Positions 6,937 to 57,986 of a stretch of 64,000 nucleotides of DNA are shown here, one piece after another (positions within the stretch are counted from its first letter, which is position 1; every line of letters begins with the position of its first letter). Where the stretch lies: contig CAYRCU010000001.1 of the NCBI GenBank assembly GCA_964422865.1, positions 5,159-69,158 on the forward strand. Reading direction: 5' to 3'. This stretch comes from an uncultured Gammaproteobacteria bacterium. GTDB lineage: Bacteria; Patescibacteriota; Microgenomatia; UBA8517. Both the position numbers and the translations under genes were made by a program. The notes under the pieces were generated by a model that saw only the letters and a program-made list of their open reading frames with translations, was not told the DNA's origin and ran no database searches.

Positions 6937-7498
6937 TCCTATATTCTTTTGCCGCTTCTACGACTGCTTTGCGGGCCATGGTTATCTGTTCGCGCGTTGA
7001 CTTTAGATCAGCTCTGAGTTCGCCGATTGCAGTTCTTGCGGCTTTTCCCAGATTATCTTCGCTGCTAAAATTGATTACGTAAATTTTCAGGGATTGTGCT
7101 TCTACTGCACTCTCAGCTGTGGCGATTGCTTCTTTTGCAAGAATTACTGCCTCAGTTTCTCCGGACCTGCTTTCAATTTTTGCAAGAATTTTTGCAAGAC
7201 GCGCCAGTATCTTTCTCCACCTTTCGGTCCAATTGCTGTTTATTTTTTGTATGCGCTCGTCAATGTGCTCAATAATCTTTTGTTTTCTTTCGTCTTTTAA
7301 TGTTTTTACTTTTTCGCGAAATTCTTCCCTTTCTTGAAGCAATTGTTGGCGGATTTCTGCGGCATTTTCTTTGCGTTCAAGCCTGTTTTGTGTGCGGACT
7401 TCGCGGATTTCTTCTGCTCTTTGCCTCACCGGGACTTCCACCGTATCGCCCGCCGGCATCATCGAAGTTACAAATAATAAAGCAATTATACCTATCAT
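6908..7498 (-). CDS. Secreted coiled-coil hypothetical protein
   Basis: Signal peptide. Arg/Glu-rich heptad-like sequence. Confidence 0.45.
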   Translation of the reverse strand: MIGIIALLFVTSMMPAGDTVEVPVRQRAEEIREVRTQNRLERKENAAEIRQQLLQEREEFREKVKTLKDERKQKIIEHIDERIQKINSNWTERWRKILARLAKILAKIESRSGETEAVILAKEAIATAESAVEAQSLKIYVINFSSEDNLGKAARTAIGELRADLKSTREQITMARKAVVEAAKEYRNANSFKDEE

Positions 7499-49940: not shown

Positions 49941-52103
49941 ATGGACGATCAAAATCAGCCGAGGATTATACTGGAAACCCCCAAAGAGGAGGGGCCTTTT
50001 TTGCCGAAATATACGATAAATTTAACAAAGCAGGCAAAAGAGGGAAATCTTGACCCGGTTATTGGAAGAAATACGGAAATCAGACGCATAATGCAAATTC
50101 TTTCAAGGCGGACAAAGAATAATCCCGTGCTTATCGGAGACCCCGGTGTCGGGAAAACCGCTCTTGCCGAAGGGCTTGCTCAAAGAATTGCTGACGGAGA
50201 TGTCCCTGTTTCTTTGAAAGACAAAGATCTTTTGATTCTTGATATGTCCTTGCTTTTGGCGGGCTCTAAGTTCAGGGGAGAATTTGAAGAAAGATTGAAG
50301 GGTGTTATTAAAGAAATAGAACAGGGTGAGGGGAAATATATTATGTTTATTGATGAGTTACACACGATTGTGGGTGCAGGATCCAGCGAGGGAGCTGTTG
50401 ATGCCTCCAACATGCTTAAGCCTGCCCTCGCCAAAGGAACCTTAAGAGTCATTGGAGCTACAACGATAGATGAATACAGAAAATATATTGAAAAAGATGC
50501 TGCTTTAGAGAGAAGATTCCAGCCTGTTTTTATATATGAGCCTTCGATGGAAGACGCTATAGCGATTCTTCGAGGGATTCGAGAGAAATATGAGCTACAT
50601 CACGGTGTCAAAATAACCGATGATGCTTTAATTACTGCGGTAAAGCTTTCAGACAGATATATTACAGACAGATTCCTGCCGGACAAGGCAATTGACCTTA
50701 TAGATGAGGCCATGTCATCACTGAGGATTGAAACCGAATCTTCACCTGCGAAGCTTGATCTTAAAAAAAGAAAGGTAACCCAGCTTGAAATCGAGCTTGC
50801 GGGATTAAAAAGAGAAAAAGGGAAAGTCGTGGAGGAGAGAAAAAATGAGATTAAAACAAAAATTGATAATCTTAAAAAGGAAGTGGCCGGTCTTGAAAAG
50901 GAATGGGGAAAACAAAAAGAAATTCTTAAAAAACTTAATGAAAACAGAAAAAAAATAGATGAAGCAAAAATTGAACTGGAAAAGGCTGAACGTGATTTTG
51001 ATCTTGAAAAGGCAGCTGAAATAAAATACGGTAAACTTCCCGAGCTTAATAAAAAAATTGATAAATTAAAAAAGGAATGGAGCAAGATCCCGGATGAGAA
51101 ACGGCTTTTGAGGGACGGCGTGACTGATGAAGATGTTGCGGAAGTCGTATCAAAGTGGACAAATATTCCTGTAAGTAAAATTCTTTCTTCAGAAAAAGAA
51201 AAGCTAATCAACCTTGAAAAGGAACTTGAAAAAAGAATTGTTGGCCAGGACAGGGCTCTCAGGGAAATATCTAAAGCTATAAGAAGAAACAGGACCGGTC
51301 TTTCTGAAGGCAGAGGTCCTATTGGAACGTTTCTTTTTTTGGGCCCAACGGGTGTTGGAAAGACCGAAACCGCAAAGGCTTTAGCGGCAACTCTTATGGG
51401 CAAGGAAGATGCAATTATTAGACTTGATATGAGTGAATATCAGGAGGAACATGCTGTGGCAAGATTGATTGGTGCTCCGCCGGGATACGTGGGTTATGAG
51501 GAGGGTGGATATCTTACGGAAGCTGTTAGGAGAGGATCATACAGCGTGGTTTTACTGGATGAAATTGAAAAAGCGCATCCCAATATCTTTAACGTACTTT
51601 TGCAGGTGTTTGATGACGGGAGATTGACGGACGGAAAAGGAAGGATTGTTAACTTTAAAAATACAATAATTATTATGACTTCTAACCTGGGTAGCGAGAT
51701 TATCCGCAGGAAGGCCGGGGTGATAGATGAAGAGCTTGATCAAAACATCGAAAGACTTCTTCACCAGACATTTAAGCCGGAGTTTTTAAACAGGATTGAT
51801 GCCACAGTTGTCTACAAACCCTTAACACCAAGTGTTTTAAAGAAAATTGTAGATATCCAAATTGAAGAATTGAGAAAAAGACTTTCAGAACAAGAGATTG
51901 CCATATCTTTTGATGAAAAAGCAAAAGAGTATCTTGTAAAAAACGGGTATGATCCTGTTTTTGGTGCAAGGCCTTTAAAAAGACTGATTAACGATCAAAT
52001 ATTAGATGAAATCTCTCTCCGGATCCTTGAAGAGAAAATCGAAAAGGGTGACAGTATACTTGTGAAAGTGGACGAAAAAGGAAAACTTTCTATAAGAACG
52101 TAA
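49941..52103 (+). CDS. clpB: ClpB-type AAA+ disaggregase lacking the N-terminal domain
   Basis: Two AAA modules (GDPGVGKTA; GPTGVGKTE) separated by a long coiled-coil M-domain. 720 aa and starts directly before NBD1. Confidence 0.85.
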
Positions 52104-52462: not shown

Positions 52463-53410
52463 TTATTTAGAAAGGTCTTGAATAACTTTTTTAGCTACAT
52501 CCCATTGGTTGGGAAAATTGAAGTGATCTTTTAGCTTCCCTTGCTTTACCCATTTAACCTTTCTGATTTCCTTGGTATCTGGTTTTAAATCATTCCTTTC
52601 ACCCGTAAATTTAACTAAGAAAAAGCTTTCCCGTTGTCCTTTGTATGTTTTATTATTGTCTTTTAGCCTTTTTGCGACAACAAAATCCGGCCAATTATAT
52701 TTCGAAGTGTATTTGCTTCTTTTGACTATTTTAAATTTTCTTGTACCCAGTTCTTCGCTCAACTCTCTTAATAGAGCATTCTCTGCGGTTTCATTCTTCT
52801 CAATACCTCCGCCCGGAAAATTCCAATCGTTTTCACCATAACTTTCGAGCTGAACTATCAAAAAATTGCTATTCTTATCCGTAATAATTCCTGTAGATTT
52901 TCGCCTATATCCAAGACTGCCATTTTTTATTAAATAGTTAGTATAAGCATTTTGAACTGCCTGGGTAAAAGGTGTTTCTCTTGAAATCAAATTCTCATCA
53001 ATCTTGTGTTTTTTGGCATAAAGACGAATTGCGTCCCCAAACCAGCTGCCATTTTTTATTTCATCTGAAACACTTTTAGGAAGATGGATTTCAATTCCCT
53101 TTCCCATGTACTCGTTATCACTTCGATCAACTAAACAGGCAAAAGCAATAAGATGATATCCTTTCCCGTAATCATGAAGCCCACCTTCCAATCCAAACCA
53201 GAAATCGGCATTAGACTCTACTTTTTTGGCATTTTTTGCACGATTCTTGGCACCTTTTAAAATAATATTTTTATTTAAGGGTTGAGTTGTAATTTCTGAA
53301 TCAACCTTTACACCAGTTACTTCTGGCTCTAAATGTAATTCCTTTAGAGCATTTTTGAGAATACTAATCTTGTCAGTACTTCTAGAACCAAGTACGACTT
53401 TCATAAGCAC
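52463..53410 (-). CDS. Fusion of YjjX-like inosine/xanthosine triphosphatase (DUF84) and NUDIX hydrolase
   Basis: N-terminal half shows ADFWFGLEGGL, compared with E. coli YjjX ADFWVAIEAGI. C-terminal half shows the Nudix box GGGIEKNETAENALLRELSEELG. Confidence 0.65.
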   Translation of the reverse strand: MLMKVVLGSRSTDKISILKNALKELHLEPEVTGVKVDSEITTQPLNKNIILKGAKNRAKNAKKVESNADFWFGLEGGLHDYGKGYHLIAFACLVDRSDNEYMGKGIEIHLPKSVSDEIKNGSWFGDAIRLYAKKHKIDENLISRETPFTQAVQNAYTNYLIKNGSLGYRRKSTGIITDKNSNFLIVQLESYGENDWNFPGGGIEKNETAENALLRELSEELGTRKFKIVKRSKYTSKYNWPDFVVAKRLKDNNKTYKGQRESFFLVKFTGERNDLKPDTKEIRKVKWVKQGKLKDHFNFPNQWDVAKKVIQDLSK

Positions 53411-53437
53411 ATGTTAACACGAAATTAGTGGCAAATA

Positions 53438-53446
53438 TGGTATAAT
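53438..53446 (+). promoter_or_regulatory. Extended -10 promoter TGGTATAAT
   Basis: Matches TGnTATAAT exactly. Lies 7 nt upstream of a leader ORF. Confidence 0.55.
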
Positions 53447-53452
53447 TTAGCC

Positions 53453-53521
53453 ATGAAGAAATCGAGATTGGGTACAAGCTATTGCTACAACAAACCTCTC
53501 AGGGAGGCTTTGTTGTTGTGA
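53453..53521 (+). CDS. Putative 22-aa leader peptide (MKKSRLGTSYCYNKPLREALLL)
   Basis: Short ORF between the promoter and the terminator. Overlaps alternative pairing segments (GGGAGG / CCTCCC). Confidence 0.35.
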   Translation: MKKSRLGTSYCYNKPLREALLL

Positions 53522-53545
53522 GTTAACGGCCAAGAAGCAATAGCA

Positions 53546-53569
53546 AACCTCCCATTGGGAGGTTTTTTT
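53546..53569 (+). terminator. Intrinsic terminator / attenuator hairpin (AACCTCC-cattg-GGAGGTT followed by T7)
   Basis: 7-bp GC-rich stem, 5-nt loop, then a run of 7 T. Ends 14 nt before the racemase ATG. Confidence 0.6.
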
Positions 53570-53583
53570 GATGGGAGAAACTT

Positions 53584-54276
53584 ATGAAAAAAGTAGGAAT
53601 AATAGGTGGATTAGGACCGGAAACAACCACCAAATTTTATATGGAGGTAGTGTTTGCGTGCTCAAAAATAGCTGGAAAGCGCCCAAATATCATCATCTCG
53701 AGTGTTGGGCTGCCGCTTGACGTTGAAGAAGAAATCATTGTGAATGCGAAAAATAAAGAAAAACTGCTGCCTTTTCTTGTCGACTCTGCTCAACAACTAG
53801 AGAAGGCAGAAGTTGATTTTATAGTCATTCCCTGCAACACCGTTCATGTTTTTATCGATGAGATAAGAAAGGTAATTAGTATTCCTGTTTTAAGCATTAT
53901 TGAGGAGACTTCTGATTTTTTGAAATCAAAAGATGTAAAAAGAACAGGACTTTTGGGAACTCAGATGACCATTAAAGAGAAGTTGTTTGATAAAAAATTA
54001 AGCGAGAACAAAATTGAAATAGTTACTCCGAGCAAATCTGGCCAGTTAGAAATGGGGCTAATAATAAATCGTCTGGTTAAAACCTCATGCAACAAAATGG
54101 ATAAAAAAGAATTGCTAAAAATAATCAATGGGCTTGTCGCTAAAAACATCGACTGTGTTCTTCTGGCGTGTACCGATCTACAGCTTCTCGTTAGAAATCA
54201 TAACAAAGTAAGGATTTTTGATACACTTGATATTCTCACAAAAGCAACCGTACGAGAAATAATTGATACCGCTTAA
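53584..54276 (+). CDS. Asp/Glu/hydantoin racemase family protein (aspartate racemase-like)
   Basis: MKKVGIIGGLGPETT..., PCNTVH and LACTDL motifs with two catalytic Cys. Confidence 0.75.
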   Translation: MKKVGIIGGLGPETTTKFYMEVVFACSKIAGKRPNIIISSVGLPLDVEEEIIVNAKNKEKLLPFLVDSAQQLEKAEVDFIVIPCNTVHVFIDEIRKVISIPVLSIIEETSDFLKSKDVKRTGLLGTQMTIKEKLFDKKLSENKIEIVTPSKSGQLEMGLIINRLVKTSCNKMDKKELLKIINGLVAKNIDCVLLACTDLQLLVRNHNKVRIFDTLDILTKATVREIIDTA

Positions 54277-56759: not shown

Positions 56760-57986
56760 ATGAAGCTATTAGAACTTGAACGAAGAGTGGATGAACTGCT
56801 CACCAGAGGAGTGGTTGATGTTATTGATAGAGAGCACTTGCGCGACAGAATGCTTTCTGGAGATACTTTAAGAGTCAAATTTGGCATTGATCCAACAGGT
56901 CCAGATATTCATATTGGGAGAGGTTCCACAATTAAAAAACTCAGGGAATTTCAAGAATTAGGACATCAAATAGTTTTAATAATCGGTGATGCTACTGCTC
57001 AAATTGGTGACTCCTCAGATAAGGATAGTGCCAGAACGATGTTAACTTCGGAAGAAATCTCTGCAAATGAAACTAAGTATTTAGAACAGATTGGAGAAAT
57101 TATTGACATACAAAATACAGAGATTCATCACAATAGCGAGTGGATTGATCGTCTTACTCCCAAAGACTGGGTTCAGCTAGCAAGCCTTTTTACTCTTCAA
57201 CAAATCGTCCAAAGAGATAATTTCGCTCGCAGGATAAAAAAAGAAATTCCCGTAGGTTTTCATGAGGGATTATATTGTCTGCTCCAGGGATGGGATTCCG
57301 TTAATATCCGAGCAGATGTTGAAATCGGCGGGACTGATCAGTTATTTAATCTTTTAGCAGGAAGAAAGATCCAAGGTCATTTCGATCAAGAACCGCAAGA
57401 TATTATGATACTACAACTTCTTGCTGGAACAGATGGCAGGAAGATGAGCACCAGCTGGGGCAATGTTATCTTAGTTAATGAGTCACCTGAGGAGAAATAT
57501 GGGAAAGTAATGAGAATAGCTGATCATCTTATACCAGTCTATCTTGAAAGTGCGACTCTTGTGTCTTTACAAAGGGTTCAAGAGATAAAAACCTCACTTG
57601 AAGAAGGTGAGGGAAATCCAATGGATTACAAAAAGGAGTTAGCTTATGAAATAGTCAAATTTTATGATGGAGAAGAATCCGCCCGATATGCTCAGGCACA
57701 TTTTGAAAGAGTTGTTCAGCGTCAAGAATCCCCTGGAGAGATAATGACCATAGATGTTTCTCCAAATATCAGCGTATCGGAACTTTTTGACATTTTGAAA
57801 AGAACTAATTTTGTAAGAAGTAAAGCAGACGCTAAACGACTTATGGAACAAGGGGCAATTAAAATTGAGGATAAAGAATTCAGAGTTGACGATTTGAAGT
57901 CCAAGATTGAAATACCAACTACATCAAATGGCATAATTGTGAAGGTCGGAAAGAGAAGATTCCTGTGCTTAACAAGAAAAAAGTAA
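56760..57986 (+). CDS. tyrS: Tyrosyl-tRNA synthetase
   Basis: GIDPTGPDIHIGRG (HIGH-type), KMSTS, and a C-terminal S4-like domain. Confidence 0.8.
   Translation: MKLLELERRVDELLTRGVVDVIDREHLRDRMLSGDTLRVKFGIDPTGPDIHIGRGSTIKKLREFQELGHQIVLIIGDATAQIGDSSDKDSARTMLTSEEISANETKYLEQIGEIIDIQNTEIHHNSEWIDRLTPKDWVQLASLFTLQQIVQRDNFARRIKKEIPVGFHEGLYCLLQGWDSVNIRADVEIGGTDQLFNLLAGRKIQGHFDQEPQDIMILQLLAGTDGRKMSTSWGNVILVNESPEEKYGKVMRIADHLIPVYLESATLVSLQRVQEIKTSLEEGEGNPMDYKKELAYEIVKFYDGEESARYAQAHFERVVQRQESPGEIMTIDVSPNISVSELFDILKRTNFVRSKADAKRLMEQGAIKIEDKEFRVDDLKSKIEIPTTSNGIIVKVGKRRFLCLTRKK

Follow-up and report, generated by a model that had tools for sequence, protein, structure and literature searches.

Why should a gene for an amino acid racemase be preceded, within a gap of only 173 nt, by a promoter, a small ORF and a transcription terminator? 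The question is raised by one intergenic region of the window, i.e. the whole 64,000-nucleotide stretch of DNA analysed here, from a small-genome member of the Patescibacteria, in which the sequence and the ORFs place a divergent gene pair on either side of the gap (Table 1). An earlier note made from the DNA letters had read this layout as ribosome-mediated attenuation, an architecture supported by family conservation, by the match between codons and downstream genes, and by folding energies. We consider it likely that the element is a leader-peptide, ribosome-mediated transcription attenuator carried by a predicted leaderless transcript. The parts of the element, their conservation, the alternative pairings, the codon–gene match and the tyrosine T-box of sister lineages were all computed.

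Table 1. Features of the leader region and its flanking genes, in window coordinates.
Feature	Position	Strand	Remarks
NTPase_I-T/NUDIX fusion protein gene	52463–53410	minus	other side of the leader gap
Extended −10 promoter TGGTATAAT (TGn + TATAAT)	53438–53446	+	
Leader ORF, 22 codons, MKKSRLGTSYCYNKPLREALLL	53453–53521	+	stop TGA 53519–53521
P1 5′ arm GCUAUUGCU	53478–53486	+	from MFE folds; overlaps the control codons
Putative control codons Tyr10 (UAU), Cys11 (UGC), Tyr12 (UAC)	53480–53488	+	from the codon table and relatives
Region 1 ACAACAAACCUCU, anti-antiterminator arm	53487–53499	+	core CCUCU at 53495–53499
Region 2 GGGAGG-C-UUUGUUGUUGU	53502–53519	+	partner is region 1 or region 3
Region 3 AGCAAUAGCAAACCUCCC	53536–53553	+	from folds
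Region 4 (GGGAGG) and U7 tract	53557–53569	+	intrinsic terminator with 53545–53553
GAUGG, window version of the RUGG motif	53570–53574	+	
Shine-Dalgarno-like GGGAG for the racemase	53573–53577	+	6 nt upstream of the ATG, past the terminator
Racemase gene, PLP-independent two-cysteine, Asp/Glu family, 230 aa	53584–54276	+	candidate regulated gene

The extended −10 element and the 22-codon upstream ORF described in the earlier note are both present. Upstream of the extended −10 element, no convincing −35 box was found. The −10 hexamer lies 6 bases from the ATG of the leader ORF, and no Shine-Dalgarno sequence precedes this ATG. Given this spacing and the missing Shine-Dalgarno sequence, transcription is predicted to start at the A of the ATG, yielding a leaderless mRNA. 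The ORF is probably translated in that form, a point absent from the earlier reading. Recoding of its UGA stop codon (genetic code 25) is unlikely, because table 11 leaves long genes intact, e.g. the 720-aa ORF at 49941–52103, and because the leaders of the family described below end with UGA, UAA or UAG.

At the control-codon site, relatives carry Tyr-Trp-Tyr or Trp-Tyr-Tyr, the closest ones reading DYWY or NYWY. The window leader has just two Tyr codons, with Cys where the relatives have Trp. The leader of the window organism was found unchanged in three other metagenome samples, and the unusual Tyr-Cys-Tyr is thus no read error. The distance from the start of the last Tyr codon to region 1 is 9 nt, so that region 1 would lie under a ribosome stalled on this codon.

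After the leader start, the RNA segments follow in the order CCUCU, GGGAGG, CCUCCC and GGGAGG-U7. The GGGAGG inside the ORF had been noticed before and is indeed there, but at 53502–53507 rather than at 53500–53505, a difference of 2 nt. Its proposed upstream sequestering segment, also inside the ORF, was recovered as AACCTCTC (53493–53500); the corresponding 1:2 hairpin pairs 53487–53499 with 53503–53516. A further 9-bp helix, P1, joins the Tyr-Cys-Tyr codons (GCTATTGCT, 53478–53486) with AGCAATAGC (53536–53544), and its pairing is kept with altered bases in close relatives, e.g. CUAUUGGUA/UACAAUAG in locus L136. Region 3 is composite: it contains the 3′ arm of P1 (53536–53544), the 3′ arm of the antiterminator (53537–53553) and the 5′ arm of the terminator (53545–53553). 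A terminator scan reports the last element as AAACCTCCC-ATT-GGGAGGTTT (53545–53565), with the remainder of the T7 run extending to 53569; its stem has 9 bp, five of them G-C pairs, with a 3-nt loop and a U7 tract. Both the intrinsic terminator with T7 and its position only 14 nt upstream of the racemase ATG (53570–53583) had been claimed correctly. Directly 3′ of the U-tract, most family members carry an RUGG motif.

The leader has a minimum free energy of −46.3 kcal/mol (z = −4.0 relative to dinucleotide shuffles), and the free window RNA folds into three helices, P1, 1:2 and the terminator. The computed energies, −16.3 kcal/mol for 1:2, −23.0 for 2:3 and −13.1 for 3:4, support mutually exclusive structures. 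When region 1 was masked and region 4 left untranscribed, 53502–53519 paired with 53537–53553 over 17 bp with one bulge (−23.0 kcal/mol), which bears out the antiterminator that the earlier note had drawn between GGGAGG and the left arm of the terminator. In this antiterminator, the 3′ arm comprises both the P1 partner of the Tyr-Cys-Tyr codons and the left arm of the terminator; a ribosome sitting on these codons would thus free exactly the bases that are needed. With a ribosome placed at the stop codon, the terminator is the sole structure able to form in the window fold. With region 1 masked in the full-length window RNA, the equilibrium fold still shows the terminator (−23.2 versus −23.0 kcal/mol). 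At equilibrium the terminator is thus ahead by 0.2 kcal/mol, and read-through has to be decided kinetically.

The same layout, i.e. a −10 box, 6–9 nt, ATG, a small ORF, CCTC-loop-GGGAGG, a spacer and CCTCCC-loop-GGGAGG-T6–8, is found ahead of racemase orthologs in >30 distinct loci, and it is kept before orthologs of 48–83% protein identity. Genomes provided seven clear cases (L001, L002, L010, L014–L016 and L034), as well as a divergent leader in L037, where the racemase is 39% identical; this leader is a weak covariance-model match (26 bits). Contigs reached through racemase proteins of 57–83% identity also have the leader (L081–L087, L136 and L137); such protein look-ups added eight distinct leaders, and metagenome loci about 27. 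The earlier note had tied its reading to the upstream regions of orthologous racemases, and the upstream ORF and hairpins are present at many of them. The leader is absent in 12 of the 19 genome orthologs of at least 45% identity, about two thirds of the close orthologs. Among the leader-less orthologs that we checked, 9 of 14 have a −10 box 6–9 nt before the ATG of the racemase itself, versus 4.8% of all ATGs. Leaderless expression thus seems to be the usual mode in this clade.

Leaders of the racemase class have 18, 21, 24, 27 or 30 nt between the ATG and TGGTA, a multiple of 3 in all 32 distinct leaders. These leaders encode W-Y-Y or Y-W-Y, or Y-C-Y in the window, three to five codons before the codon that bears CCUC. 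The TGG-TAT-TAC run is nearly invariant in nucleotides (TAT 25 versus TAC 2 at one position). Its bases also pair in RNA helices, and therefore constraints on codons and constraints on RNA are inseparable within the racemase class alone.

We scanned metagenomes with the pattern CCTC N3-4 GGGAGG N20-50 CCTCCC NNNN GGRRGKTTT, which imposes exact cores and nothing upstream of region 1. The scan yielded 48 metagenome loci; pooled with the known loci and deduplicated, the set comprises 48 distinct sequences. A small ORF of 15–25 codons is present in 45 of them, and the other three are GC-rich and look like chance matches. In 44 of the 45 leaders, a −10 box lies 6–9 nt before the in-frame ATG (perfect TATAAT in 30, TGn in 36), and equally in 44 the stop codon falls 8–16 nt past the GGGAGG of region 2. 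The last control codon, as counted from the sequences, starts 4–10 nt before CCUC in all classes.

The leaders are found in front of several types of genes. About 27 of the 48 loci directly precede a racemase gene. In L114, L115, L119 and L130 a gene for a 330-aa protein follows the leader, with the racemase next wherever the contig extends far enough. Elsewhere, FFGFFF is found before genes for prephenate dehydratase and DAHP synthase, FFYFYF before DAHP synthase, MMQMM and MIEMM before SAM hydroxide adenosyltransferase, SIMKIIA before RidA (L-PSP), (W)HH before a HAD hydrolase, and IIITII and IIISII before small proteins with no assigned function. A covariance model built from the scan leaders retrieved further, more divergent members, with YYYYAY before a GCS2-type ligase gene, NYYYYY before a GCS2-type ligase gene followed by the racemase (L023), and branched-chain runs. 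Regions 2, 3 and 4 have changed jointly in some of these divergent members, reading GGCGG/CCGCC/GGCGG in L003 and L143, and GGUGAGG/CCCACC/GGUGGG in L023.

The CCTC core occurs in all three phases relative to the leader frame (26, 16 and 3 of the 45 leaders), so that one and the same RNA encodes PLREALLS, TSSGGLLSVM or NLLGEAFLS. The phase is thus fixed upstream and free downstream, which indicates that the N-terminal half is shaped by its codons and the C-terminal half by the RNA. The strongest support for attenuation is that, on one RNA scaffold, the codon runs fit the genes downstream, a classical signature of this mechanism. Only a translated sensor accounts for this match; an untranslated RNA gives no explanation for it.

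The alternative pairings are general in the family. A simulated stall gave the 2:3 pairing in 45 of 45 leaders and a simulated ribosome at the stop codon gave the 3:4 terminator in 45 of 45; 2:3 (mean −22.5 kcal/mol) is more stable than 3:4 (mean −13.5 kcal/mol) in every one. At equilibrium, 26 of the 45 free RNAs adopt a nested 1:4 + 2:3 structure in place of 1:2 + 3:4, and this structure likewise ends at the U-tract. As the cores were imposed by the search pattern, we tested the flanks instead, comparing the 12 nt after region 2 with the 12 nt before region 3 in duplex-energy permutations. The flank duplex reaches −6.5 kcal/mol within loci versus −3.6 across loci, and 0 of 5000 permutations attained the real value; the complementarity between the flanks of regions 1 and 2 is likewise locus-specific. 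The antiterminator is under selection, and the covariation that the earlier note had suggested looking for is thus seen in the flanks. A MAFFT alignment analysed with RNAalifold predicted just seven invariant pairs; this alignment is not structure-aware, and it was therefore replaced by the anchored duplex-energy permutations and the masked folding.

Which amino acid would such a leader sense in front of the racemase? Tyrosine, through a shortage of charged tRNA-Tyr, is the signal that we favour with some reserve. Relative to the racemase leaders, those of the HAD class have TAT-TAC changed to CAT-CAC, i.e. two transitions, with the preceding N-W kept. Essentially only the two Tyr codons are altered, which points to these positions as the specific sensor. 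More generally in the family, the control codons fit the regulated gene: Phe codons are found ahead of pheA/aroG-type genes, and Met codons ahead of the SAM hydroxide adenosyltransferase gene. In addition, three racemase operons devoid of the leader peptide (L003, L143 and L144) are preceded by a T-box, with scores of 98.8, 100.7 and 78.2 bits for a gathering threshold of 93. The specifier position is UAC (Tyr) in all three, with a variable neighbouring base (GAA-U-UAC-C, GAA-G-UAC-C). The base after the specifier codon of a T-box is usually a purine (PMC2879506); here it is C, so that the Tyr assignment rests on the position in the Rfam alignment, and by sequence a specifier ACC (Thr) in a shifted register may be read. 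The Tyr(/Trp) codons of the racemase leaders agree with the Tyr T-box of the sister lineages and with a partner protein of the TyrRS/TrpRS fold, tying the racemase operon to tyrosine and perhaps to aromatic amino acids generally.

We infer the start site, the leaderless translation, the stalling and the physiological signal of the attenuator as follows. Transcription would begin with the A of the ATG (53453), and the 22-codon leader would at once be translated by a ribosome. When charged tRNA-Tyr is plentiful, the ribosome would reach the UGA at 53519 and cover region 2; regions 3 and 4 would then pair, and the hairpin and U7 would halt transcription 14 nt short of the racemase gene. When charged tRNA-Tyr is scarce, the ribosome would stall on UAU-UGC-UAC (53480–53488), opening P1 and covering region 1; in the relatives, Trp may add to the starvation signal. 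Region 2, left uncovered, would then pair with region 3 into the 17-bp antiterminator before region 4 has been transcribed. The polymerase would read through, and the racemase would be translated from its own Shine-Dalgarno sequence.

This RNA logic would serve equally well if the sensor were the nascent peptide, with an N-Y-W-Y sequence arresting the ribosome in the presence of a small molecule, e.g. a D-amino acid or a free aromatic one. The model for such a device is TnaC, an arrest peptide that responds to free tryptophan. The motif is kept beyond single codons, as L-N-Y-W-Y-Y and N-W-Y-Y, and sensing of the substrate would make sense for a racemase. However, the homopolymer-like runs that match biosynthetic genes (FFGFFF before pheA, MMQMM, IIITII) are the signature of charging-dependent stalling, and the Asn or Ser ahead of the run is found in all classes rather than being specific to the racemase leaders. 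Moreover, the same operon is under a tRNA-sensing T-box in sister lineages, and the S-Y-C-Y of the window breaks the motif yet keeps the Tyr codons. We therefore regard peptide arrest as rather improbable. An RNA-only switch, riboswitch-like or with a protein-bound antiterminator, in which the ORF would be incidental and untranslated, is in our view very improbable. Such a switch would be in line with the high conservation of the four cores as RNA, with the good folding of the leader (z = −4.0) and with an ATG that has no Shine-Dalgarno sequence, but it leaves aside everything that follows the reading frame: the ATG, which keeps a distance of 6–9 nt to the −10 box (44 of 45 leaders), the indels ahead of the aromatic codons, all of which are multiples of 3, the stop codon 8–16 nt past region 2 (44 of 45 leaders) and the codon content that shifts with the function of the downstream gene. 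Furthermore, no Rfam family matches.

As the promoter, ORF and terminator together make a complete unit within ~115 nt, the element might also be an independent gene for a small protein or small RNA with its own terminator, and expression of the racemase might depend on unregulated read-through or on a promoter elsewhere. In other bacteria, trans functions can be exerted by terminated attenuator RNAs and by leader peptides, e.g. rnTrpL and peTrpL (PMC6614838, PMC7298713). Nevertheless, there is no conservation at the protein level in the C-terminal half of the peptide, with three frames running over the same RNA, and L010 and L095 have their stop codon near region 2. A same-strand gene always follows the unit directly, with a function that tracks the codon run, and within 53520–53583 neither inspection by eye nor a promoter scan brought out a −10-like hexamer or other promoter site. 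An independent gene is thus hardly to be expected here, but a trans role may exist on top of attenuation.

Other identities of the element were considered and rejected. A repeat or mobile element does not fit, as the hairpin is found once in the 64 kb of the window and a single copy is likewise reported by covariance model R1 (67.8 bits), with the next match on the + strand at 13.7 bits. Known RNA families, including the Phe, Trp, His, Thr and Leu leaders, are not near threshold: a permissive Rfam search of 53200–53800 gave as its best match Phe_leader (RF01859) at 23.0 bits for a gathering threshold of 55, and this match came from the terminator. The T-box model (RF00230) scores 12.5 bits on the window element for a gathering threshold of 93, and the search of the whole window at gathering thresholds returned only a tRNA-Glu.

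The trpL, pheL, hisL, thrL, leuL and ilv attenuators of Proteobacteria are composed of a short leader ORF that contains codons of the amino acid to be sensed, the 1:2, 2:3 and 3:4 pairings and a terminator. The window element resembles them in its putative sensed-residue codons, its four RNA segments, a terminator just before the first gene and a stop codon placed so that an unstalled ribosome would cover segment 2. Unlike them, with which it has no homology in sequence or structure, it has a leader ORF devoid of a Shine-Dalgarno sequence at the predicted 5′ end, and a near-invariant core resembling Shine-Dalgarno and anti-Shine-Dalgarno sequences (CCUC, GGGAGG, CCUCCC, GGGAGG) that serves several amino acids. 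Its family also has non-biosynthetic targets (racemase, SAM hydroxide adenosyltransferase and RidA) and Patescibacteria as the host phylum.

Leaderless sensory ORFs have precedents. In Deinococcus deserti, 14 predicted leaderless leader peptides, rich in one residue, precede tRNA synthetase and amino-acid biosynthesis genes, and their authors propose transcription attenuation (PMC4007540). A transcription start at the leader AUG is shared with the window, where it is predicted, but the phylum is another one, the sequences are unrelated, the window target is a racemase and the D. deserti report names no shared scaffold. The mycobacterial polycysteine leaderless short ORFs of the ‘Cys ribulon’ were shown experimentally to exert translational control (bioRxiv 10.1101/834739). 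Like the window element as predicted, they are leaderless sensory ORFs in which a ribosome held up on a codon run changes the structure of the RNA that follows, and several operons share the logic; in contrast, the output in the window is an intrinsic terminator with a U7 tract. The Tyr T-box of the sister lineages senses tRNA charging, as the window leader would, and shares with it the choice between terminator and antiterminator, the orthologous operon and a UAC that matches the leader Tyr codons, but a T-box binds tRNA directly, without translation. In open-access papers and preprints we found neither attenuation in Patescibacteria nor attenuator-controlled racemases, and Rfam 15 has no match to an attenuation family of this kind. 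The family of leader switches is thus apparently undescribed, although the mechanism itself is known from the trp, phe and his attenuators. What is new is the lineage, the scaffold resembling Shine-Dalgarno and anti-Shine-Dalgarno sequences that is used for at least five amino acids, the salvage-type targets, and the swap between leader peptide and T-box at one operon.

The putative output of the switch belongs to the Asp/Glu racemase family, with matches to Pfam PF01177 (4.6e-34), to NCBIfam TIGR00035 ‘amino acid racemase’ (164.9 bits) and to the aspartate racemase 1jfl (2.8e-35); both catalytic Cys motifs of the window racemase are aligned with those of P. horikoshii AspR. The nearest solved structure is that of an archaeal aspartate racemase, and the nearest relatives of the protein are in genomes of Woesebacteria and other Patescibacteria. 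The position that we take to be Arg48 of AspR is aligned with a Glu in the window racemase, to which we gave no weight regarding Asp specificity. The 330-aa partner protein has a TyrRS/TrpRS fold; the idea that it is a GCS2 relative was rejected, as there is no BLAST similarity. A link to D-aminoacyl-tRNA deacylase is unsupported, since Dtd is found near the racemase in one lineage only (L083–L085) and not in the window.

A tentative and rather speculative reading is that amino-acid-auxotrophic Patescibacteria have a tyrosine-starvation circuit whose output is the racemase and which would thereby induce salvage or detoxification of D-aromatic amino acids, the attenuator being a reusable, phylum-specific plug-in scaffold. 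In many lineages the racemase might then act with the TyrRS/TrpRS-fold protein or a GCS2-type ligase. Low levels of charged tRNA-Tyr might result from missing L-Tyr or from competing D-Tyr, and the sensor would be either a leaderless Y/W leader peptide or a Tyr T-box. A few codon swaps would re-target the scaffold to another amino acid. As a precedent, a broad-specificity racemase of Pyrococcus horikoshii is reported to be switched on when a D-form replaces the L-amino acid (PMC13628549). This is a PLP-dependent enzyme under a protein transcription factor in an archaeon, and the analogy is one of physiology only.

The Patescibacteria (CPR) are generally regarded as bacteria with minimal regulation and hardly any amino-acid biosynthesis. 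As judged from sequence, the family described here would represent conserved, modular, translation-coupled terminator switches in these bacteria. The codon run can be used as a label that names the amino acid served by each uncharacterized downstream gene, and these labels provide testable hypotheses for the racemase, the TyrRS/TrpRS-fold protein, the GCS2-type ligases and several small proteins. The presence of a leader peptide in some lineages and of a T-box in others represents a clean natural case of regulatory replacement. Lastly, the family provides indirect evidence for leaderless translation and for the coupling of transcription with translation in these uncultured organisms.

Coordinates of the features described here are listed in the table. 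In all three T-box riboswitches upstream of racemase operons, UAC (Tyr) occupies the specifier position, with a C directly 3' of it instead of the usual purine. The Tyr-run leaders NYYYYY and YYYYAY are predicted to control GCS2-family carboxylate-amine ligases; the ligase gene is followed by the racemase gene in L023, and in L100 its neighbours are genes for an amidoligase-like protein and an M20 peptidase.

A TyrRS-type synthetase gene is found 2.5 kb 3' of the window racemase with its Tyr leader, a proximity that may be coincidental. In three relatives (L082, L086, L087), the racemase gene is adjoined by Peptidase_S51 genes (dipeptidase E/cyanophycinase family), a possible hint at peptide or amino-acid salvage. 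The divergent NTPase_I-T/NUDIX gene of the window is probably leaderless as well, judging from its start region, and two leaderless promoters would thus stand back to back, approximately 20 nt apart.

The leaders of the variant attenuators are rich in His and Tyr (YWYH, HYH). At both loci this variant precedes a conserved 17-22-codon ORF, MK[IV]EP[KR]TLKGFRDFLP, whose predicted product resembles by eye the N-terminus of HisRS, and an NYN-domain gene follows.

Two further elements of the leader scaffold are conserved. In most of the 45 distinct ORF-bearing leaders, RUGG is located 7-8 nt downstream of the SD-like region 4. In L089, L112 and L128 this motif serves as the start codon for the regulated gene, and the terminator there would therefore additionally mask the SD. 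Family-wide, CGUGAUGUAA (UGUGAGUUAA in the window) supplies stop codons in two reading frames, so that leaders of different frames terminate at almost one site.

Lastly, single contigs harbour several family attenuators, with the codon runs FFGFFF, YYYYAY and FIVASVVI in L100, and IIITII and IILNIVVLLL in L093. These contigs show a regulon-like deployment of the attenuator family inside one genome.

Features in the window and in relatives or family members (L-numbers)
Feature	Position	Strand	Details
NYYYYY leader, GCS2-family ligase gene	L023:1441-3705		
YYYYAY leader, GCS2-family ligase gene	L100:49-1566	-	
TyrRS-type synthetase gene	window 56760-57986	+	PF00579, SYY C-terminal domain
NTPase_I-T/NUDIX gene start region	window 53402-53419	-	TGTTAACAT, 6 nt, ATG (53404-53402)
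T-box, racemase operon	L003:1727-2012		lineage without leader peptide
T-box, racemase operon	L143:1657-1949		lineage without leader peptide
T-box, racemase operon	L144:964-1243		lineage without leader peptide
Attenuator variant	L003:4093-4260		GGCGG/CCGCC cores
Attenuator variant	L143:3735-3900		GGCGG/CCGCC cores
RUGG (GUGG/AUGG)	window 53570-53574		directly 3' of U-tract; equivalent site in most of 45 leaders
Conserved CGUGAUGUAA, here as UGUGAGUUAA	window 53517-53526		8-16 nt 3' of region 2
Three family attenuators	L100:5901-5997, 1468-1566, 6974-7054	-	
Two family attenuators	L093:2722-2817, 2020-2126	-
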